DNA from: a virus
Lineage: Duplodnaviria; Heunggongvirae; Uroviricota; Caudoviricetes
Length of the DNA stretch: 37,183 bases
Strand: one strand, 5' to 3'
IMG/VR virus record: IMGVR_UViG_2537562195_000008
Below, one piece after another: positions 1,137-36,896 of the stretch (position 1 is the stretch's first letter; each line of letters starts with the position of its first letter). The notes below the pieces were generated by a model, which saw nothing but the letters and a program-made list of their open reading frames with translations, searched no databases and was not told where the DNA came from. The position numbers and the translations under genes were made by a program.

Positions 1137-2813
1137 CTAAGCAACATGCAGTTCATCGTTGGCGGAAGTTGCTGCTTTGCGCTCTTGCTCAATCGCCAGT
1201 GACTCTCTATATTCTTTCGCTTCCGCAAACATTGTCCATTGTGCGTTGATGTTCATATCTTCAATAACAGACTTAATTTCTTTAATATTTACGTTGAAAA
1301 ACTCTTTTCGTGAGTTAATTTTATTGACCTGTTTTTCGTTGAAGACTTTATGCAGATGATTTTCTAATGATGGTGCATCATCACTATAAATCATCGCATG
1401 AACATCGAACGAAAAAGGAACACTAGCATCACCGAGTTCACGAACACGATCAAGTGGTTCAAGGCGGCGTGTCATTCCAATTTTATATACATCTTCGCCA
1501 AATGAGCCAATATTACTAATTATATAAACGTGGCCTGATCTAGTTTGTTGAGCCATAGAAATAGCTCGTTGGTTTTTAGCTTCAGCTTCTTCATATTTTA
1601 ACTGTAGTTCAGCTATTTTTTGCTCTAAAGCTAAGCGTTGTTCTTCATTTGCAAGCATAAGCTCTTTTGTTGCTTTATTTATAGCTTGCTGAATAGCTTT
1701 CTCTTCTTTTTCAGCTTCTTTTATCGCTTTTTCATACTCCCTACGAGCTCTTTCCTCTTCACGAAGTTGTTCTTTAATCCTTCTTTGCTCTTCTTTTTCT
1801 TCGAGCATAATTTCATTAACTGCAACTCCCCATTTTAGCTCGTTGAGTCGAGCTTGAAGATAGATGTCACTTATTTTTGCGGACCTAAAGGCAGAACCAT
1901 TGTAATTTACAAGTTGAAACGCATCTTTTATCTCTTGGGAAAGTTTTCCAAAATTGTTGTGTTTGACTTTTGATAAAATACTGTCAACTCTTCCATTGAA
2001 GGCATCTAAAACAAAGTTGATAGCAGTATTACGCCTGTTTTGTTCAACATAATCACACGAAGCAGCTTTATTAGTTTTTATTAATGATTTTGTTAACTCC
2101 CTGGCTTTTTGTAATTCCTTACCTGCATCTGTAAACTCATAATTTTCTGCCAATTCATCGAGAACGCTACGGTTAGGGATGATCCATTCATCACCATAAC
2201 CTTCAATTTTATTTTTCATTGATTTGGCAACTGCTTCATATTTTTCTGCAAACTCTTTAGCTTCATATGCTGAACCAGCAATCTCTTTTGCTCTTTCTTC
2301 TGCATCGGAAATAATTTTCACTGCATTGTCATTAGCATTTGAGATCAGCTCATTTGCTTTACTATTGGCATTATCAAGACGTTCTTTAGCTTTCAGGCGT
2401 GCATCGCGAGCGTCTTTAGTAATTGCTATAGCTTCGCTATTAGCGTTGCTTATTTTTATCTGAGCTTGATAATTTGCTTCGTTTACTGTCTTAGCAGCCT
2501 TTATTTGGGCTTCTTCTATTTTTTGCCTGGCTATTGAGTCTGCATTTTTTATCTTATTCTCTGCTTCCATCACTGCGCTGTGCAATTCTACGTATTGCCA
2601 TAATGGCGCAGCTCGTCCTTCAAGCTCTGATAGATCTCGTACAGTCTGTGCTAATTCTTCTTGATTTTCTTTCAGTTGGTTGGAAAGGGCTATGTTGTTA
2701 GCTGTCAAGGTATTTATAGCCGCTTTATGTTTTTTGCTTTGCTTAAATAATATTACAGCTAGAATGGGGGCGAGAAATGCTAATAAGAATATAACGATGG
2801 AAAATGAATTCAT
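1137..2813 (-). CDS. Membrane-anchored coiled-coil protein with DUF4041-like region and C-terminal T5orf172/MUG113 (GIY-YIG-like) domain; cargo gene
   Basis: 558 aa; N-terminal hydrophobic helix (IVIFLLAFLAPILAVILF); long E/K/A/Q-rich coiled coil; C-terminus GHVYIISNIGSFGEDVYKIGMTRRLEPLDRVRELGDASVPFSFDVHAMIYSDD...LHKVF matches the T5orf172 signature from memory; AT-rich relative to flanks. Confidence 0.7.
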   Translation of the reverse strand: MNSFSIVIFLLAFLAPILAVILFKQSKKHKAAINTLTANNIALSNQLKENQEELAQTVRDLSELEGRAAPLWQYVELHSAVMEAENKIKNADSIARQKIEEAQIKAAKTVNEANYQAQIKISNANSEAIAITKDARDARLKAKERLDNANSKANELISNANDNAVKIISDAEERAKEIAGSAYEAKEFAEKYEAVAKSMKNKIEGYGDEWIIPNRSVLDELAENYEFTDAGKELQKARELTKSLIKTNKAASCDYVEQNRRNTAINFVLDAFNGRVDSILSKVKHNNFGKLSQEIKDAFQLVNYNGSAFRSAKISDIYLQARLNELKWGVAVNEIMLEEKEEQRRIKEQLREEERARREYEKAIKEAEKEEKAIQQAINKATKELMLANEEQRLALEQKIAELQLKYEEAEAKNQRAISMAQQTRSGHVYIISNIGSFGEDVYKIGMTRRLEPLDRVRELGDASVPFSFDVHAMIYSDDAPSLENHLHKVFNEKQVNKINSRKEFFNVNIKEIKSVIEDMNINAQWTMFAEAKEYRESLAIEQERKAATSANDELHVA

Positions 2814-2833: not shown

Positions 2834-3430
2834 TTAATTTGAAACTATTGTACTTCTTATACAAGCAACTACTTCAATATCAGAAAATGCACATTCAAAG
2901 CTATTCTCTGTACTTGTAATTTTAATCATACCTTTTGGAAGCTTTGTGATTTTTCGAATGGAATAGGTTCCGTCGATGTTGATTAACCAGTGCCCATCAA
3001 GTACTTCAGAAAATTTTTGATCACAAATGTATGTGACGAGCCCATCCTGAATAACAATTGGTGATGAAAGATTTGCAGGAAGAAATGATGAATCGAAGAC
3101 ATATGAACCATCTTCAATCATTTTGCCTGCGGTAAGGCGAAACTTGGCAAGCTCTTCTGTAGCTGCTGTCAGCGAGCTTTGCTTAAGGCCTTGCCCGGTG
3201 GTTAACCATTTCAGTGAGGTTCCTGTTTCAAGAGCACATTGGATTATCCAGTCTGCAGGAAACGTATCCCGCAAATACCTGTTCGCCAGAGTGCTTTTTG
3301 ATACTTCCAAGTGATCAGCTAAAGCCTGTCGTGTCGTAAAGCCATAAGCTTCGACTAATCGCTCAATCGCAGCCTTACCACCTTTATTGGGATTTATTTT
3401 GATCTCATTTGGGTACTTTGATGTTGACAT
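2834..3430 (-). CDS. cI: Immunity repressor CI (186-type: N-terminal HTH, C-terminal oligomerisation domain)
   Basis: 198 aa; resembles 186 CI as recalled (…EAYGF…LA..L.VS.STLANRY…CALETG..L.WL.TG…); divergent from the early lytic operon. Confidence 0.8.
   Translation of the reverse strand: MSTSKYPNEIKINPNKGGKAAIERLVEAYGFTTRQALADHLEVSKSTLANRYLRDTFPADWIIQCALETGTSLKWLTTGQGLKQSSLTAATEELAKFRLTAGKMIEDGSYVFDSSFLPANLSSPIVIQDGLVTYICDQKFSEVLDGHWLINIDGTYSIRKITKLPKGMIKITSTENSFECAFSDIEVVACIRSTIVSN
3406..3418. promoter_or_regulatory. Putative operator repeat copy 1 (CATTTGGGTACTT) in the cI/apl switch region
   Basis: Exact 13-bp direct repeat with 3465..3477, about 59 bp apart, flanking the cI start and the divergent pR region. 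Confidence 0.4.
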
Positions 3431-9222: not shown

Positions 9223-9384
9223 GGTTGAACAACGAGCCGTGCGAGGCGTTAGCTCTGTGGTGCATGTCTATGCCGCATGAGATCGCATGATCGTTTGAGG
9301 ATCGTTTTTGCTAAGGCCCGCCAGAACTGTCGGGCTTTTGCGTAGATCATGCAGGTGCATGAAAACCACTACATAAAGCGGGCA

Positions 9385-9403
9385 GGCGTGGCGGGGATAC
9401 GAG
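9385..9403. other. cos: Putative cos (cohesive-end) site, P2/186-like GGCGTGGCGGGGA…
   Basis: GGCGTGGCGGGGATACGAG resembles the P2/186 19-nt cohesive end as recalled (GGCG(A/T)GGCGGGGAAAGCA…); lies in a non-coding gap between the early region and the portal-side island. Confidence 0.5.
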
Positions 9404-9577
9404 CGCGCGCTGATAGGGTAATCGTCAAAACAGGCATCAGCTAGGTTGAGTTGTAGCGGTGCTTAAGTTTGCTCGTTGTTTGATAGAGCTTAATGTATGT
9501 AATTGCCTACAGCTGTGGTTATCTATTAACATGTAAGGATAAGGTCACTTGCTCGCTGCCATTAGAAGAGGAACTGG

Positions 9578-10048
9578 ATGTCTATCGAGGAAAAATTTTT
9601 TAGTGATATCGATTTAAAAGATCCGTTTTTTAACAGCCTAAGAGCTGATTATGAAGGATTTGATGTTTGGTTTCTCTCAAAAGGTAAAAATAAGGCGTTT
9701 GTATCACGTAATGAATTAGGTGAAATCGATGGTTTTCTCTATTTGAAAATAGAAGATGAAGAGTTGAGTGATATGACTCCAACGTTTCCAAAGATGAAGC
9801 GAGTAAAGCTTGGCACATTTAAAATCGATGCTCATGGAACCAAACTTGGAGAGCGTTTTATTAGAATTATGTTTCAATTTGCTATGAGAAACAAACTAAA
9901 AGAAGTATATGTTACTATATTTGATAAGCATTCAGGGTTAATTCGCTTATTAACTAAATATGGTTTTGTTTTAAAGGCGAGGAAAAATCTTTCTACGATT
10001 AATGGGCAAGAAGGTGTATACTTTAAAAACTTGGTATGGAAGGAGTAA
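9578..10048 (+). CDS. Hypothetical protein, possibly GNAT-fold N-acyltransferase-like; island gene 1
   Basis: 156 aa; C-terminal half (…KLGTFKIDAHGTKLGERFIRIMFQFA…EVYVTIFDKHSGLIRLLTKYGFVL) resembles GNAT motifs A/B; AT-rich. Confidence 0.5.
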   Translation: MSIEEKFFSDIDLKDPFFNSLRADYEGFDVWFLSKGKNKAFVSRNELGEIDGFLYLKIEDEELSDMTPTFPKMKRVKLGTFKIDAHGTKLGERFIRIMFQFAMRNKLKEVYVTIFDKHSGLIRLLTKYGFVLKARKNLSTINGQEGVYFKNLVWKE

Positions 10049-10051
10049 AAA

Positions 10052-10633
10052 ATGAGCTATGCTAATTATCCCTTAGTCAAATTGCAGGGGAGAAATTATT
10101 TATTAAGTATTTATCCTGCATGGCATACACGTCTTTTCCCTGAGTCAAAACTCCACAATGAGAGTGCTGGTATCATCGCTGATATATCACATACCAACAG
10201 TATTGAAAAAGTATACTTAACAAAAATGCATGGGGTAGCCAGCCTAAAGCCTGGAGATAATTTGCTTATTTATCGTACTTCAGATGGACAAGGTCCAGCT
10301 CGGTTTAGATCTGTTGCAACTTCAGTGTGTGTGGTTCAGGAAATTAAAGATATTCACGATTTCTTAACTTATGAGGAATTTAAGAATTACTGTGAACCTT
10401 ATAGCGTTTTTGATGAAGATGAGTTACAGCTTCTATATATGAAAAAAAATTATCCGATAATTATACGGTTTACTTATAATTTCCCTTTGGAAAAAAGAGT
10501 TATTCGTGATGAAATCATGAATATTACAGGTTATACCAATAGTGATTATTGGGGTTTTTTACCACTAACTGATTCAGCATTTAAGCAGATTGTCTTACAG
10601 GGAGGTGTTGATGAAAGTTTTATTATCGATTAA
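10052..10633 (+). CDS. Hypothetical protein; island gene 2
   Basis: 193-aa ORF tightly linked (4-nt gap) to the upstream gene; no motif recognised; AT-rich. Confidence 0.55.
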   Translation: MSYANYPLVKLQGRNYLLSIYPAWHTRLFPESKLHNESAGIIADISHTNSIEKVYLTKMHGVASLKPGDNLLIYRTSDGQGPARFRSVATSVCVVQEIKDIHDFLTYEEFKNYCEPYSVFDEDELQLLYMKKNYPIIIRFTYNFPLEKRVIRDEIMNITGYTNSDYWGFLPLTDSAFKQIVLQGGVDESFIID

Positions 10634-10980
10634 GCCAGAGTATGCAGAGAGTATACTTTCTGGTAAAAAAATATGAGTTTCGGAAAAATATTTTTAGAAA
10701 TAAAAATGTTGATACGATAGTTATTTACGCAACGATGCCGGTTGGCAAAGTAATAGGTGAATTTAAAGTAGGAGATATTCTTGCTCTATCCCCTTCAGAA
10801 TTGTGGGATAAAACGAAAGCTCATGCAGGAATTACACATTCTTTTTTTAAAGATTATTTCCACCAAAGAGAAAAGGCTTTTGCTATTTCCATCAAAAGCC
10901 CTAAAAGATATAAATTCCCTGTCGACTTAAATGAGTTGATTCCCGGCGGCGTCGCCCCACAGTCTTATCGTTATTTATAA
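10611..10980 (+). pseudogene. ASCH/PUA-like domain protein interrupted by a frameshift at an A7 tract; island gene 3
   Basis: ATG at 10611 encodes MKVLLSIKPEYAESILSGKK then hits TGA; the listed ORF 10642..10980 continues in another frame with …YEFRKN…IVIYATMPVGKVIGEFKVGDIL…AFAISIKSPKRYKFPVDL…; together they form a typical ASCH domain; the frames meet at poly-A 10665..10671. Confidence 0.5.
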
Positions 10981-11520
10981 TGTTGTCTGGGCATGTTTCT
11001 TAACCATGCCCAGTTTTTCTAGGGCAATAGATAAATCGTTTGTTGTTGGGGATTCTAAGATAATTAATGGTACATTGATTTTATTTGTAACATATTTTGC
11101 GTTTTCTCTTTCAGCTTCCATCAGCTTATTTAAATCATAAGTAATATCACTCCCATCTCGTTTCATTATTCGTTCTCTAATTGTATCGGGAGACTCCTCA
11201 ACTAAAATTACTCCATCTAGCCCCATTTCCTCAAATACTTCTTGCTTGAGAACTTCAATATCTCCATTTTTATTTATTAAGGTAAAATGACCATCCAATA
11301 AAATATTGGATACCTTTGACTTTAATGCATTAAGTGCCGTAAGTAATATTGATTGGTTTTTATCAGGTGTGGCCGTTAACTTACTGTTATCAAATTTAAT
11401 ATTAGAATTATTTTTTATAAGTTCGCTTGCGCTTACATGAGTTACCCCGAAATCATCTTTTGCAAATGAACACAAGTAACCTTTGCCTACACCATGAACA
11501 CCTGCTATGAAAATTAACAT
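10975..11520 (-). CDS. P-loop NTPase, nucleotide/nucleoside kinase-like; island gene 4
   Basis: 181 aa; Walker A GVHGVGKG at the N-terminus, hhhhD Walker B-like ILLDGHF; size and layout like small adenylate/dNMP kinase-like ATPases; RBS GGAGG upstream. Confidence 0.6.
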   Translation of the reverse strand: MLIFIAGVHGVGKGYLCSFAKDDFGVTHVSASELIKNNSNIKFDNSKLTATPDKNQSILLTALNALKSKVSNILLDGHFTLINKNGDIEVLKQEVFEEMGLDGVILVEESPDTIRERIMKRDGSDITYDLNKLMEAERENAKYVTNKINVPLIILESPTTNDLSIALEKLGMVKKHAQTTL

Positions 11521-11585
11521 AGTATTACCTCCGTTTATTTATTTATGTTAGAATGTTATAGCCTTAGCATAGTAGAGGATAGAGC

Positions 11586-11963
11586 ATGAAGTTTCAAGCT
11601 ATATCGATTTTGACTCCAGCGGTAGAAAATATTATAAATGGTTCTAAATCTATCGAAATACGGTCGTGGTATCCTGAAACGATACCATTAAAAAACGTCA
11701 TTCTTGTTCAGAATGATAAATATCTTAAAAATCAAAGCGATATAGATCATGGGGTGGCTATGGCTATTGTCGATTTTGTTTCAGTTAGAAATTGGTCATA
11801 TGAGGATTACTTAAAACAAAACCAAGAAACAACTCTTAATAAGCCTTGGTCTCCAGGTTATTATGTGTGGGAAATTAAAAATGTTAGAATTTTAAAAAAA
11901 TCTATTCCTTGTGTGGCGAGGAAAGGTATTTATACAATAGATTTAAATATGGATTATATATAA
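11586..11963 (+). CDS. ASCH/PUA-like domain protein; island gene 5
   Basis: 125 aa; …SKSIEIRSW… and C-terminal …YVWEIKNVRILKKSIPCVARKGIYTIDL match the ASCH pattern (Y-x-W-x-L…P…kG.qgi) from memory. Confidence 0.6.
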   Translation: MKFQAISILTPAVENIINGSKSIEIRSWYPETIPLKNVILVQNDKYLKNQSDIDHGVAMAIVDFVSVRNWSYEDYLKQNQETTLNKPWSPGYYVWEIKNVRILKKSIPCVARKGIYTIDLNMDYI

Positions 11964-11974
11964 GGTATTGTGAG

Positions 11975-12766
11975 ATGTGTGGTGCCATTCTTCGAAATAT
12001 TAAGCGTTATGCCATTATTTATTCACTGTTGTTTTTGGCTTTTATTTTAATGCTGATAGTGTTTGTTAGCTATGTTTGTAAATTTGGAATGTATTCATGG
12101 AGTGATTCCGTAGAGAAATGGGGACAGTTTGGCGATTATATTGGTGGTGTACTGAATCCTGCTCTGGCCTTTATCTCTATCATGCTTGTTTGTTTCACAC
12201 TATATTCTACATCTAGGCAGTCATCTATTCAGTCATTCGAGTCTGTGTTATTTGAGTTACTAAGATTTCATAAAGATAACTTATCAGAAATTAAAACAAC
12301 GTATTCAGATGGAAAAGTGTATGTAGGACGGGAGGCTCTTTCATTATACATTACCGAAGTGAAGTTTAACCTACTTAATATTGTGGATGATTCACTTCCT
12401 TTGGATGAAAGGTTAGAGCTTTCAGTTAATATGGTTTATCTGGAAGGTGACAATTTTGCGAATGTGGGACATTATTTCAGGAATATTTACCATATTTTTA
12501 AACATATCAATGACTCTAACTATTTGACTGAGAAAGAAAAAACCAAGTATGCGAAATTAGTTAGAGCACAAATATCTTCTATAGAATCTGGCGCGATGCT
12601 ATTAAATGGTTTTTCATCGGTAGGAAAGCCTGCCAAGAAATTTATTGAAAAATATTCTCTCCTTCAGGGGTTTAGTTTAAGTAAGGAATTCAAGCAGCAA
12701 TTACATGATTTAGGTGCCTTAAAATTATACGATGACGTTGCTTATGAGGATAAAAAAGGGCATTAA
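11975..12766 (+). CDS. Membrane protein with two N-terminal TM helices and a cytoplasmic domain (candidate effector); island gene 6
   Basis: Internal ATG of ORF 11909..12766; hydrophobic helices IIYSLLFLAFILMLIVFVSYV and IGGVLNPALAFISIMLVCFTLY; stop overlaps the convergent portal gene stop. Confidence 0.55.
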   Translation: MCGAILRNIKRYAIIYSLLFLAFILMLIVFVSYVCKFGMYSWSDSVEKWGQFGDYIGGVLNPALAFISIMLVCFTLYSTSRQSSIQSFESVLFELLRFHKDNLSEIKTTYSDGKVYVGREALSLYITEVKFNLLNIVDDSLPLDERLELSVNMVYLEGDNFANVGHYFRNIYHIFKHINDSNYLTEKEKTKYAKLVRAQISSIESGAMLLNGFSSVGKPAKKFIEKYSLLQGFSLSKEFKQQLHDLGALKLYDDVAYEDKKGH

Positions 12767-13809
12767 ATGCCCTTATCTTGGTCAAGGATGTAGTCATTAA
12801 ATGACACAATATTTTGATTTATCCAGGTGTTTAGCTCAACTAGTCTTTTCTGCAAAGGAACCAACTCATTTCTGACAAAAACCTTCGCGGCTTTTTCCAC
12901 ATCCCCAAACCCTCCAACATTATTAGGCATAATCCCCATCATTTGCGGCGGCACGCGGTGCGCAGCCATCATGTCATCACGGCTCACGTTCTTGATATTC
13001 AGAAACTCATCCTTCGCCGCAACTTCTGACAACGGGATGATCTGAAGCCCGTCCTTTTTGCCGTTAGGCGAGTACATAAACAGGTTGCGGAAGTTGCCTG
13101 GACCTTTGGCGCTTTTCATCGCATTGCGGAGGTTGTTCACATCCTCCTGGTTCTGCGCGGCATCGGTCATGTATATGATGAAGCCTGCATGACTACCGTT
13201 AATGTAATACTTCCGGCGGAACAGCGTGGCGGACTCGTTGAGCAAAGCGGATGGGATGGCAGAAAGATAGCCGGGCAGGCCGTAGATCTCCTGATTAATA
13301 TCCGGTTCCATCAGATGAAAAATGCTGCCTTTCGTGAACTGATACGGCTGGGTTGTCATACCGTATTGCACAAACCAGTAGGTCTCCAGGTCTAACCCGC
13401 GTCGGGTATATTTTGCCAGAGCAGGCTCAAGGGCGATAACTTCACCGAAGCGGTTCGTGCGTTTCTCCAGGTAGGCGTTACCAAATACCAGATAGTCCTG
13501 CACAAAACGTGAAAAAGCCTGCTGGCTGAGCAGCGGGTGAGGGATGTAGGTACTGGTCAGAATGTTGCATTTTACTGCAATCGGTGAGCTGTGATGCACG
13601 GCAGCGCGGAAGGTTCGTGCCAGTCCGTCAAAGCTGACGGGCGGCTCATACCAGCGGTCCATCTGTACGCATTCCACATAGTCCAGCAGTTCACGGCGGT
13701 CCAGAACAGGAACGGGATCGCCAAAGCTGAATGCTTCGGCTGAAGTCTGGCTTTTATGCTTGAGCTGATTCGTCGCCGCAGCGCGGTTTTTCTTACTCTT
13801 TCCCATCAA
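12763..13809 (-). CDS. Q: Portal protein (P2 gpQ family)
   Basis: 348 aa; position and orientation as P2 Q, start overlapping the terminase stop; sequence character typical of P2-like portal. Confidence 0.85.
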   Translation of the reverse strand: MMGKSKKNRAAATNQLKHKSQTSAEAFSFGDPVPVLDRRELLDYVECVQMDRWYEPPVSFDGLARTFRAAVHHSSPIAVKCNILTSTYIPHPLLSQQAFSRFVQDYLVFGNAYLEKRTNRFGEVIALEPALAKYTRRGLDLETYWFVQYGMTTQPYQFTKGSIFHLMEPDINQEIYGLPGYLSAIPSALLNESATLFRRKYYINGSHAGFIIYMTDAAQNQEDVNNLRNAMKSAKGPGNFRNLFMYSPNGKKDGLQIIPLSEVAAKDEFLNIKNVSRDDMMAAHRVPPQMMGIMPNNVGGFGDVEKAAKVFVRNELVPLQKRLVELNTWINQNIVSFNDYILDQDKGI

Positions 13810-34404: not shown

Positions 34405-34451
34405 CAACAAAAAACCCATCAACCTTGAACCGAAATGGCGGGGTTGATGGG
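34405..34451 (-). terminator. Rho-independent terminator of ybjL (minus strand)
   Basis: 10-bp inverted repeat CCCATCAACC / GGTTGATGGG followed, on the minus strand, by a T-run (plus strand AACAAAAAA). Confidence 0.55.
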
Positions 34452-34563
34452 CTCCACAAAATGGGGACATCAAAGAAAAGCAGTGGCACTAATTAAGACT
34501 GATGCCCTGCGGAAAAGTTCTGCGGTTGTGCAAAAAAATTTCATTTTCAGGGCAACTTCAGTT

Positions 34564-36249
34564 TTATCCTAATCCTGGCCATACCATGACGATGATTGTC
34601 CCTGCCAGCGTCAGCAGGACGTTGGCGATTGCGTAGGTGCCCGCATAGCCCAGCGCAGGGATGTTACTGCGAGCTGTATCACTGATGATCTCCATTGCCG
34701 GCGCGCAGGTGCGTGCGCCCATCATTGCGCCGAACAACAGTGCGCGGTTCATTCGCAATACATAAGCACCGAACAAGAAACAGATAACCACGGGCACAAG
34801 ACTGACAATTAATCCGGCAATCAACATCTGACCGCCAATCGCGCCCAGGCCGTTATTAATACCGCTACCGGCGCTCAGACCAACGCCTGCCATAAACACC
34901 ATCAAGCCGAACTCTTTCACCATGCTTAATGCACCTTGCGGAATGTAACCGAAGGTCGGGTGGTTAGCACGCATAAAGCCCAGCATAATTCCGGCGAATA
35001 ACAACCCGGCAGCGTTCCCCATGCCGAAACTGAATGTGCTGAACTGGAAGGTGATCATCCCGATCATCAGCCCAATAACAAAGAAGGCGCAAAATGCCAG
35101 CAGGTCAGTGACCTGGCTGTGAATCGAGATAAAGCCGATGCGATCGGCGATGGTTTTTACGCGACGGGCATCACCGCTGACTTGTAAAACGTCACCTTTG
35201 TTAAGCACGACGTTGTCATCTATCGGCATCTCAATCTGGCTACGAATGACGCGGTTAAGGAAGCAACCGTGATCGGTCAACTTCAGTTGTGCGAGACGTT
35301 TACCTACAGCGTTATGGTTTTTAACGACCACTTCTTCAGTGACGATACGCATGTCGAGAAGGTCACGATCGAAAACTTCTTTACCGTTACGGAAGCTGGG
35401 ATCGAGTCGGGCATGGGCGTCGGGATAGCCTACCAACGCTATTTCATCGCCCATTTGTAGCACGGCATCACCGTCTGGATTTGCCAGAATCCCGTTACGT
35501 CGAATACGTTCAATGTAGCAGCCGGTTTGTCGATAAATACCCAGTTCACGCAGATTTTTGCCGTCGGTCCAGGCCACCAGCTCCGGGCCGACGCGATAGG
35601 CGCGGATCACCGGTAAATAAACCTTACGGTTGGCATCAGTGTCCAGGCCACGTTCGCGGGCGATTTGCTGGGCGCTGGTCTGTAAGTCCTGATGCTGCAA
35701 TTTCGGCAAGTAACGCGCACCAACAATCAAACTCACCAGACCGATTAAATAGGTTAAGGCATACCCGAGGCTCAGATTATCCAGTGCCAGTGAGAGCTGC
35801 CTGCTTTCCATGCCGAAATGACGCAGTGTATCGCCAGCACCGACCAGAACCGGTGTCGACGTCATAGAGCCTGCTAACATACCGGCCGTCAGGCCAATAT
35901 CCCAGCCAAACAGCTTACCTAACCCTAAGGCGATCACCAGCGCACTGCCAACCATCACCAGTGCTAACATTAGGTAATTTTTCCCATCGCGAAAAAAAAT
36001 GGAAAAAAAGTTCGGTCCGGCTTCGACCCCGACGCAGAAAATAAACAGCATAAAGCCAAGATTAAGCGCATCGGTGTTAATGCTGAAATGTTGTTGGCCT
36101 AATAACAGCGATACGACTAAAACGCCAATGGAATTACCCAGTTGGATCGAACCAAGTCGTAACTTTCCGAGACATAGCCCAAGCGCGAGGACCACAAATA
36201 ATAACAGAATGTAATTCCCATTTAACAATTCGGCGACGTTTATATTCAC
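34564..36249 (-). CDS. ybjL: Putative transport protein YbjL (AspT/YidE/YbjL family, two TrkA-C domains)
   Basis: 561 aa; N-terminus [42 protein letters not shown]… matches E. coli YbjL as recalled. Confidence 0.9.
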
Positions 36250-36518: not shown

Positions 36519-36896
36519 GTGAAACATAAACAACGTTGGGCGGGGGCAATCTGCTGTTTTGTCCTCTTCATTGTGGTGTGCCTTTTTCTGGCGACGCACA
36601 TGAAAGGCGCTTTTCGGGCTGCCGGGCATCCTGAAATCGGCTTGCTATTTTTCATTCTTCCTGGAGCAGTTGCCAGTTTCTTTTCACAGCGTAGAGAAGT
36701 CCTGAAACCTCTATTTGGCGCAATGCTGGCGGCACCCTGTTCAATGCTCATTATGCGGCTGTTTTTTTCACCGACGCGCTCATTCTGGCAAGAGCTGGCA
36801 TGGTTACTAAGCGCGGTGTTCTGGTGTGCGCTGGGGGCACTGTGTTTCTTATTTATCAGTAGTTTGTTTAAACCACAGCACAGAAAAAATCAGTAA
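36519..36896 (+). CDS. ybjM: Inner membrane protein YbjM
   Basis: 125 aa, several TM helices; E. coli ybjL-ybjM-grxA gene order. Confidence 0.85.
   Translation: MKHKQRWAGAICCFVLFIVVCLFLATHMKGAFRAAGHPEIGLLFFILPGAVASFFSQRREVLKPLFGAMLAAPCSMLIMRLFFSPTRSFWQELAWLLSAVFWCALGALCFLFISSLFKPQHRKNQ

Follow-up and report, generated by a model that had tools for sequence, protein, structure and literature searches.

An extended, split form of a predicted GNAT-EVE/ASCH system, with a kinase, a second ASCH protein and a putAbiC membrane protein, in the cargo hotspot of a P2-like prophage

What do the six AT-rich genes lying between the cos-like site and the portal gene of a P2-like prophage do, and do they belong together? 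The genes are found in the IMG/VR virus record IMGVR_UViG_2537562195_000008, a stretch of 37,183 nucleotides which is called the window throughout, and they occupy its positions 9440-12766. A preliminary description of the sequence had presented this region as a cargo island whose combination of genes was not recognised as any named defence system. For the core of the island this is incorrect: the core is of a kind already catalogued and predicted, variously listed as PDC-M11, GNAT-EVE-ASCH or GevTA, and the last gene belongs to a named abortive infection (Abi) family. What is new is the six-gene form, in which the GNAT-EVE protein is split into two, together with the evidence linking a kinase, a second ASCH protein and a replaceable membrane protein to the core. 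A probability of about 0.5 is given to the reading that the island is horizontally acquired hotspot cargo and acts, as an extended and split GNAT-EVE/ASCH variant, in a toxin-antitoxin type of abortive infection.

The six open reading frames (ORFs) first listed for the island were confirmed in coordinates and strand (9578-10048 plus, 10052-10633 plus, 10642-10980 plus, 10975-11520 minus, 11586-11963 plus and 11909-12766 plus), as was the AT-rich character of the region. The guanine plus cytosine (GC) fraction falls from about 0.52 to 0.31-0.36 between approximately 9400 and 12760 (about 0.32 over the island as a whole) and returns to 0.48-0.58 in the portal gene. All six ORFs correspond to real genes, although two of them start elsewhere than listed, and they are referred to here as p1 to p6:

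9578-10048, plus strand: p1, 156 amino acids (aa), GNAT-like acetyltransferase half of a split PDC-M11A/GevT-like protein (PADLOC, PHROG, fused homologues)
10052-10633, plus strand: p2, 193 aa, EVE/PUA-like half of the same split protein (PADLOC, AlphaFold2 model and Foldseek)
10611-10980, plus strand: p3, ASCH protein (PDC-M11B/GevA-like), 123 aa when intact, frameshifted in the window (PADLOC, Pfam, structure)
10665-10671, plus strand: poly-A tract within p3, the frameshift site, inside the ASCH signature motif (A7 against A9 in relatives)
10975-11520, minus strand: p4, 181 aa, P-loop protein of the AAA_17/nucleoside-monophosphate-kinase-like type (Pfam, structures, motifs)
11586-11963, plus strand: p5, 125 aa, second ASCH-fold protein, divergent from p4 (motif, AlphaFold2 model)
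11975-12766, plus strand: p6, 263 aa, protein with two transmembrane (TM) helices and a putAbiC domain, 11 nucleotides (nt) past the p5 stop (Pfam, TM prediction, start as called by PGAP)

The identity of the core follows from the PADLOC models. p1 aligned with positions 11-160 (E 1e-58) and p2 with positions 166-357 (E 6e-69) of the 357-position model PDLC04419 (PDC-M11A), and p3 matched PDC-M11B (E 4e-38), so that a PADLOC search that had been proposed to confirm the absence of known systems returned a candidate system instead. PHROG 6345, a model of 352 positions, likewise covers p1 and p2 together. The order of the genes is that of PDC-M11, and the 23-nt overlap between the GNAT-EVE gene (A) and the ASCH gene (B) is the same in the island, in Legionella, in Lysobacter and in phages. 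The island differs from PDC-M11 in that A is divided into two proteins and in that a kinase, a second ASCH protein and a putAbiC protein are inherited along with the pair. PDC-M11 is still reported as a candidate in a 2026 preprint. Operons of this sort had been predicted by Bell et al. 2020 (BMC Biol 18:159), who found that an ASCH gene is almost invariably, and an AAA_17 gene often, part of (PIN)-GNAT-EVE operons, and that the form lacking PIN sits in prophages of beta- and gamma-proteobacteria. A toxin-antitoxin function was predicted there, with credit to Iyer et al. 2013, nothing having been characterised at that time. The island shares with those operons the GNAT, the EVE-like protein, the adjoining ASCH gene, the AAA_17 protein (p4) and the gamma-proteobacterial prophage setting, but GNAT and EVE are fused there and separate here, and neither a second ASCH protein nor a membrane protein is mentioned there. 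In GenBank record PV340567.1 (Escherichia phage PhiR47_2) a fused homologue and its ASCH neighbour are annotated as 'GevT toxin' and 'GevA antitoxin'. The N-half of GevT is 42% identical to p1 and its C-half 49% identical to p2, and GevA is 55% identical to intact p3; the pair in that lambdoid phage differs in being a fused two-gene form after cI, with no kinase, second ASCH protein or membrane gene. A fused pair (orf12/orf13) also occurs in Salmonella phage SopEPhi, in the same slot between cos and portal.

The assignment of p1 as GNAT-like, made in the preliminary description, holds; it is weak when p1 is compared directly and clear through the fused homologues, which match PF00583 (GNAT). 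p1 also matched PHROG 13728, 'acetyltransferase', with an E value of 4e-52, and the family conserves the motifs GTFKI..HGT.LGERF and a C-terminal YGF. p2 gave no match in Pfam. An AlphaFold2 model built from 30 homologues (predicted local distance difference test, pLDDT, 83.5) gave Foldseek matches to ZmASCH, the EVE protein 2gbs, THYN1 with 5-methylcytosine DNA and McrB N-terminal domains, and the fold of p2 as modelled is PUA-like, of the EVE type. The most conserved motif of p2, S..L..E......D.S.TNSI.KVY at residues 32-55 (approximately 10145-10216 in the window), has a pLDDT below 50. This segment may be a functional loop, possibly at an interface with the GNAT subunit or a substrate. With p2 counted, the island encodes three PUA-like proteins, namely p2 (EVE-like), p3 (ASCH) and p5 (ASCH fold); the preliminary description was right about the PUA-like fold and one short in its count.

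In most other lineages the protein whose N- and C-halves are p1 and p2 is a single polypeptide. The division is confined to a clade of Enterobacterales and Aeromonas with p2 at least 55% identical, across which the 193-aa form is kept at 55-84% identity, and the reading frames at the p1/p2 junction differ within the clade. p2 has its own Shine-Dalgarno sequence, AAGGAG, 5 nt before its ATG and within the last codons of p1. Given the conservation across genera, the ribosome binding site belonging to p2 and ratios of nonsynonymous to synonymous substitution (dN/dS) of 0.03-0.06 for p1 to p3, the split is ancient and functional. That p1 and p2 might be a pseudogenised fusion, or be joined by stop-codon read-through, was considered because they share a frame in the window, and was rejected because the frames of relatives differ, the p2 Shine-Dalgarno is strong and selection is purifying. 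Shortened forms of p2 were also seen: one of 135 aa in the complete genome of E. coli LD91-1 (locus L106, 953-1360), and forms of 146 aa and 119 aa in clusters P0021 and P0035, which hold 64 and 45 member sequences, some of them from partial contigs. The truncations suggest recurrent inactivation of the putative toxin part and are consistent with a costly gene.

The ASCH partner has suffered in the window. The ORF at 10642-10980 exists as first listed, but it is the remnant of a 123-aa gene that begins at ATG 10611, behind a GGGAGG Shine-Dalgarno sequence and overlapping the end of p2 by 23 nt, and that has been broken by a 2-bp contraction of a poly-A tract. Intact p3 scored 37.1 bits with the Pfam ASCH model and carries the GxKxxExR motif as GKKKYEFR (G18-K20-E23-R25). 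It aligned over 108 residues (E 6e-12) with ZmASCH of Zymomonas mobilis (PDB 5guq), with which it shares GKK..EFR; Tyr47 of ZmASCH corresponds to p3 Y40, conserved in at least 90% of 74 homologues. The two differ in that Lys53 of ZmASCH aligns with Gly46 of p3, a Lys following one position later, in that no equivalent of Ser128 could be mapped, and in that ZmASCH was labelled by its depositors as a helix-turn-helix domain-containing protein, a domain that p3 lacks. The Zymomonas protein can bind nucleic acids and, in vitro, acts as a nuclease on single-stranded RNA (Kim et al. 2017).

The tract reads A7 in the window, A9 in five near-identical relatives and A8 in one (L019, 6549-6655; L001, 5301-5403, was also compared). 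In a relative with p2 94% identical (L021) it is interrupted as GAAAAGAAG. Only one assembly, E. coli 96.154, has a protein record identical to the 112-aa product of the residual ORF, which makes this strain the probable source of the window; the intact protein occurs on at least 1000 contigs. The tract could be a site prone to slippage or an artefact of homopolymer sequencing. Phase variation was examined as an explanation and set aside: alleles with A9, A8 and A7 do exist, yet the A7 product is confined to that one assembly and intact p3 is spread over 1000 contigs or more, and for this reason the A7 lesion is more likely a private mutation or a homopolymer sequencing error. The copy of p3 in the window may accordingly have lost its function, or the homopolymer may simply have been misread. 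The stops of the convergent genes p3 and p4 share the palindrome TTATAA (10975-10980, an overlap of 6 nt), where relatives have 7-9 nt between the genes. A terminator would not fit into so short a space, and transcription of either unit may therefore interfere with that of the other.

p4 was correctly described at the outset as a P-loop kinase, of the AAA_17/adenylate-kinase-like type. It scored 68.6 bits with Pfam AAA_17, matched adenylate kinase 1 structures (E 1.5e-6) and conserves GxHGVGK, LLDGHF and the lid arginines R...R; its resemblance is to adenylate and UMP-CMP kinases, with a score of 25.0 against a cut-off of 26.8 for Pfam ADK and all NCBIfam equivalogs far under their cut-offs. 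p5 scored 19.5 bits with Pfam ASCH, slightly below the cut-off of 21.2 bits, and its sequence gave no match in the PDB and no detectable similarity to p3. It carries the ASCH signature as GSKSIEIR (G19-K21-E24-R26), and its AlphaFold2 model (pLDDT 84.5) matched EOLA1/CXorf40A, the TRIP4 ASCH domain and ZmASCH in Foldseek. The p5 family is small, with 210 clusters found by a profile search of 1.84 billion representatives. Of nine longer members, five combine the ASCH domain with a GNAT, which may come first or second, one combines it with a cytidine/dCMP deaminase and one with a nucleotidyltransferase, and two show ASCH alone. By the Rosetta-stone argument, these fusions suggest that ASCH domains of the p5 type cooperate with enzymes that modify bases or nucleotides, and with GNATs above all. 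The further idea that the ASCH proteins are erasers of the YqfB type did not survive: E. coli YqfB, an ASCH amidohydrolase of N4-acetylcytidine, needs Lys21, Thr24, Arg26 and Glu74 and is inactive as Thr24Ala, and although p3 and p5 share the Lys and the Arg, both have Glu in place of the nucleophile Thr24.

p6 is a real gene with, as previously claimed, two TM helices, located near the N-terminus at approximately residues 12-38 and 58-78. Its start is most likely ATG 11975, as in the PGAP annotation, and not the TTG at 11909 first listed. It scored 67.9 bits (E 1e-18) with Pfam putAbiC, PF16872, for which the cut-off is 22. Passing this cut-off and possessing N-terminal TM helices are what p6 has in common with AbiC/putAbiC proteins; it differs in matching the PADLOC AbiC model weakly (E 1e-5, 23 bits) and in that its subfamily is tied to the GNAT-EVE block and does not stand alone. 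Among phage records p6 gave one weak match, a 'lysogenic conversion' protein of P2-EC45. Three look-ups of genomic context that started from p6, with homologues 59%, 58% and 43% identical, all landed in the same six-gene block, and over these and 24 dereplicated loci the subfamily at 43% identity and above was seen only inside the block. In Aeromonas lambdoid prophages the slot 7 nt past p5 is occupied by a SLATT_5 protein, also with two TM helices. It shows no similarity to p6, which indicates replacement and not divergence.

The linkage of the genes was examined across 108 related loci, of which the first 95 were scanned with iterated profiles and to which the tally below adds eight more. 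The sample is biased, comprising the best 80 of 196 viral matches and a few genomic contexts, and genes were called as simple ORFs. Among 81 dereplicated loci bearing the core, the architectures were:

A+B only: 33 loci, the commonest architecture
A+B with kinase, p5 and putAbiC: 21 loci
A+B with kinase: 12 loci
A+B with kinase and p5: 9 loci
A+B with kinase, p5 and SLATT_5: 3 loci
A+B with putAbiC: 2 loci
A+B with p5, putAbiC and a kinase remnant: 1 locus

The core was present in 94 of the 95 scanned loci, the exception (L095) ending at a contig edge, and the ASCH partner B always lay downstream of A. The pair is alone in Legionella, Lysobacter and SopEPhi. The kinase was found downstream on the opposite strand, as in the window; downstream in the same orientation, sharing 4 nt with B (L054, L062, L078); and upstream on the same strand (L015, L047, L048, L084, L086). 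The link crosses phyla, kinase and pair also occurring together in Paenibacillus and in a fragment of Enterococcus phage IME_EF3. Three layouts were also seen for a second small ASCH-like gene beside the kinase: p5 in divergent orientation, a DUF3850 protein of 85 aa following the kinase (L074, L077, L079) and a DUF3850-like protein of 113 aa preceding it (L082). In the scanned loci p5 itself was found only where the GNAT is a free-standing protein. In two loci (L037, L038) A, B and p6 form a tight tandem lacking the kinase and p5. Where the membrane gene is lacking, the portal gene follows p5 directly in eight P2-hotspot loci (L034-36, L039-42, L044), and in K. oxytoca (L005-8) a degraded P2 remnant follows.

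For any two of the six proteins, the identities of their homologues to the window copies rise and fall together, with Spearman coefficients of 0.81-0.96. Together with the searches from p6, which landed in the same block down to 43% identity, this supports the view that the six genes are inherited as one unit. Compared with L021, dN/dS was 0.06, 0.03, 0.04, 0.14, 0.25 and 0.08 for p1 to p6, dS being near saturation beyond this closest relative. All six genes are thus real, under purifying selection and co-inherited as a block.

That this block is cargo is indicated by its location. Of 5426 complete E. coli genomes searched with Megablast, 1277 contain the flank on the cos side (9300-9420) and just 8 the island, each time whole and at least 99.4% identical. 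These counts fit the gpA-gpQ hotspot of P2-like prophages (Rousset et al. 2022), and the island lies in this hotspot, between the cos-like site and the portal gene, as the preliminary description had it. The hotspot holds 1,650 gene arrangements and houses old, tin and other validated defence genes expressed in the lysogen (Rousset et al. 2022). Supplementary file 6 of that study lists the island by its protein accessions among the arrangements, and ASCH, GNAT and AbiC are absent from its main text and from its HHpred table of tested systems. Elsewhere the pair lies beside the integrase in some prophages and, in lambdoid phages, immediately behind cI and in its orientation. This slot after cI corresponds to the position of rexAB in lambda. 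The enterobacterial and Aeromonas examples examined are all in prophage cargo slots, and in Legionella, Lysobacter and Paenibacillus the copies lie in the chromosome, where no prophage genes are evident around them.

A mechanism of the following kind would fit the favoured reading of a toxin-antitoxin type of abortive infection. In the lysogen p1 and p2 would form a two-subunit acetyltransferase, in which the PUA-like p2 steers p1 to a substrate linked to nucleic acid, with RNA/tRNA or a modified base as the likeliest target. The toxic activity of p1/p2 would be restrained by p3, the ZmASCH-like protein, in the role given to GevA. Infection by another phage would upset this balance, leading to growth arrest or death of the cell before the invader can replicate. 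The kinase p4 and p5 may tune or redirect the acetyltransferase, and p5 could be a second targeting subunit for p1, since p5-type ASCH domains are fused to GNATs elsewhere. p6 would add a layer of abortive infection acting at the membrane, either coupled to the system or merely inherited with it. There are precedents for the GNAT: the toxin-antitoxin systems AtaT, TacT and KacT acetylate aminoacyl-tRNA. They resemble the island in having a small GNAT next to a neutralising partner on a mobile element, with acetylation proposed as the activity here, and they differ in that the toxins lack a PUA-like domain and the antitoxins are DNA-binding proteins, not ASCH proteins. No sequence match of the island proteins to AtaT, TacT or KacT was seen.

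Several observations weigh against this reading. The direct GNAT matches of p1 are weak (PaiA model, E 0.002; GNAT structure 8osp, E 0.004). A frameshifted p3 beside intact p1 and p2 is hard to square with an essential antitoxin, unless the sequence is in error at that point, p5 takes over from p3 or the toxin lies latent. The co-variation is calculated from identities to a single reference and lacks phylogenetic independence. Nine dereplicated lineages have p1 to p5 and no membrane gene, and putAbiC proteins 25-30% identical to p6 stand alone in unrelated islands; with the membrane gene dispensable and its distant relatives alone, p6 may be an independent neighbour. PADLOC lists PDC-M11 as a candidate only, the names GevT and GevA come from annotation alone, and the literature yielded no experimental study of a PDC-M11, GNAT-EVE/ASCH or GevT/GevA member, hence no phenotype, toxicity or substrate. 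Bell et al. 2020 also raise the opposite role, that of a phage weapon against host restriction.

The alternative that survives best is that the island is a composite of independent units brought together in a hotspot: a PDC-M11/GevTA pair in three ORFs, a pair of kinase and second ASCH protein, and an AbiC-like protein that acts alone. The frequency of A+B alone (33 of the 81 dereplicated loci) speaks for this, as do the distant putAbiC relatives in other islands, the occurrence both of five-gene loci without p6 and of A+B+p6 loci without kinase and p5, and the orientation of the genes, which places p4/p5 and p5/p6 in separate transcription units. Lactococcal AbiC, moreover, is a single-gene system. 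Against it stand the close relatives of p6, which at 43% identity or more occur only inside the block, and the co-varying identities of the six proteins (rho 0.81-0.96), maintained in a hotspot with high turnover. The kinase is also translationally coupled to B in other lineages, domains of the p5 type are fused to GNATs, and in Aeromonas the p6 slot is filled by a different protein with two TM helices. On balance a composite is possible but somewhat doubtful.

The most far-reaching reading is that of a single system made of all six genes: a free-standing GNAT (p1) with exchangeable PUA-like readers (p2 and p5), controlled by p3 and p4 and equipped with an interchangeable effector with two TM helices (putAbiC or SLATT_5). 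This would be modification-sensing abortive infection with no described counterpart, and is regarded as rather unlikely.

It is more unlikely still that the cassette serves the phage against its host, an EVE/ASCH-directed GNAT countering restriction or modifying host RNA during lytic growth. The discussion of such a role by Bell et al. 2020, the phage-borne nature of the enterobacterial and Aeromonas loci examined and the reading of modified bases by the PUA-like domains of McrB and THYN1 give it some grounds. The slot, however, is one for defence genes expressed in the lysogen, such as old and tin, the pair in lambdoid phages follows cI directly on the same strand, a membrane protein of an Abi family accompanies the cassette, and the submitter of the GenBank record labelled the pair toxin and antitoxin.

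Ordinary nucleoside or RNA-modification metabolism, for example the writing, erasing or salvage of N4-acetylcytidine, carried along passively, is very improbable: YqfB is an ASCH amidohydrolase of that nucleoside, p4 is like adenylate and UMP-CMP kinases and a cytidine/dCMP deaminase fusion exists in the p5 family, but both ASCH proteins have Glu where YqfB needs Thr24, none of the island proteins reaches an NCBIfam equivalog cut-off, the enterobacterial and Aeromonas loci examined are prophage cargo (the Legionella, Lysobacter and Paenibacillus copies being chromosomal) and the island is found in so few complete E. coli genomes (8 of 5426).

The surroundings of the island are those of a prophage of the 186/P2 type, which encodes a CI repressor, CP76 and a Dam-type methylase. 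The island is preceded on the left by a gpA-like replication endonuclease, a DinI-like gene and the cos-like site, and the immediate flanks are as follows:

9385-9403, no strand assigned: cos-like 19-mer GGCGTGGCGGGGATACGAG, read in the sequence; the left edge of the hotspot, outside the system
12756-12774, no strand assigned: hairpin with T-run, terminator-like, at the convergent p6/portal junction
12763-13809, minus strand: portal gene, followed by the terminase gene

The 19-mer is taken by us to resemble the P2/186 cos site, and the stops of p6 and the portal gene overlap by 4 nt. No near-identical DNA was found in sequenced phages except for the cos flank, an Rfam scan found no RNA family in the island, and repeats there were limited to short matches at chance level. 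A promoter scan found fewer sites in the island than in shuffled sequence and is for this reason uninformative.

Other cargo was noted in the course of the analysis. A 558-aa protein encoded at 1137-2813 (minus strand) of the window, between the integrase (1-1053) and the CI repressor (2834-3430), contains DUF4041 and T5orf172/MUG113 domains and matched PADLOC PD-Lambda-1 with an E value of 5e-120, so that the same prophage carries a second, already named defence gene in another cargo slot. Further unannotated cargo shares the hotspot with GNAT-EVE pairs, namely orf14 and orf15 of SopEPhi (193 aa and 325 aa; L107, 4708-6256) and a 316-aa gene on the reverse strand of L038 (7793-8743). P2-like phages very often carry small DUF3850/ASCH proteins, and in a Serratia prophage one lies upstream of gpA (L002, 2263-2577). 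Arrangements of the form 'DUF3850/ASCH + hypothetical...' recur in the hotspot table, and the third gene of the 'old-tin' entry is a DUF3850/ASCH gene (Rousset et al. 2022, supplementary files 4 and 6). It may be that proteins of the ASCH type serve some general purpose in phages of this family. At the right end of the window the RybB small RNA (34406-34484, minus strand; Rfam, 105 bits), a YbjL-like Asp-Al_Ex permease (34564-36249, minus strand) and YbjM (36519-36896, plus strand) form the chromosomal flank and mark the insertion site of the prophage. The YbjL-like permease also flanks a related prophage in L102.

Pairs of GNAT-EVE and ASCH genes are widespread in the cargo slots of prophages, in the P2 hotspot, after cI in lambdoid phages and beside integrases. 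The six-gene form offers natural handles for their dissection, having separate catalytic and reader proteins, a dedicated kinase, a second reader and a candidate membrane effector. If RNA, tRNA or DNA is indeed acetylated under the control of an ASCH protein, acetylation guided by a reader of modified bases would be added to the chemistries of phage defence and the bacterial ASCH and EVE domains would be given a function. If instead the parts act singly, the locus would supply three further entries to the catalogue of the P2 hotspot.

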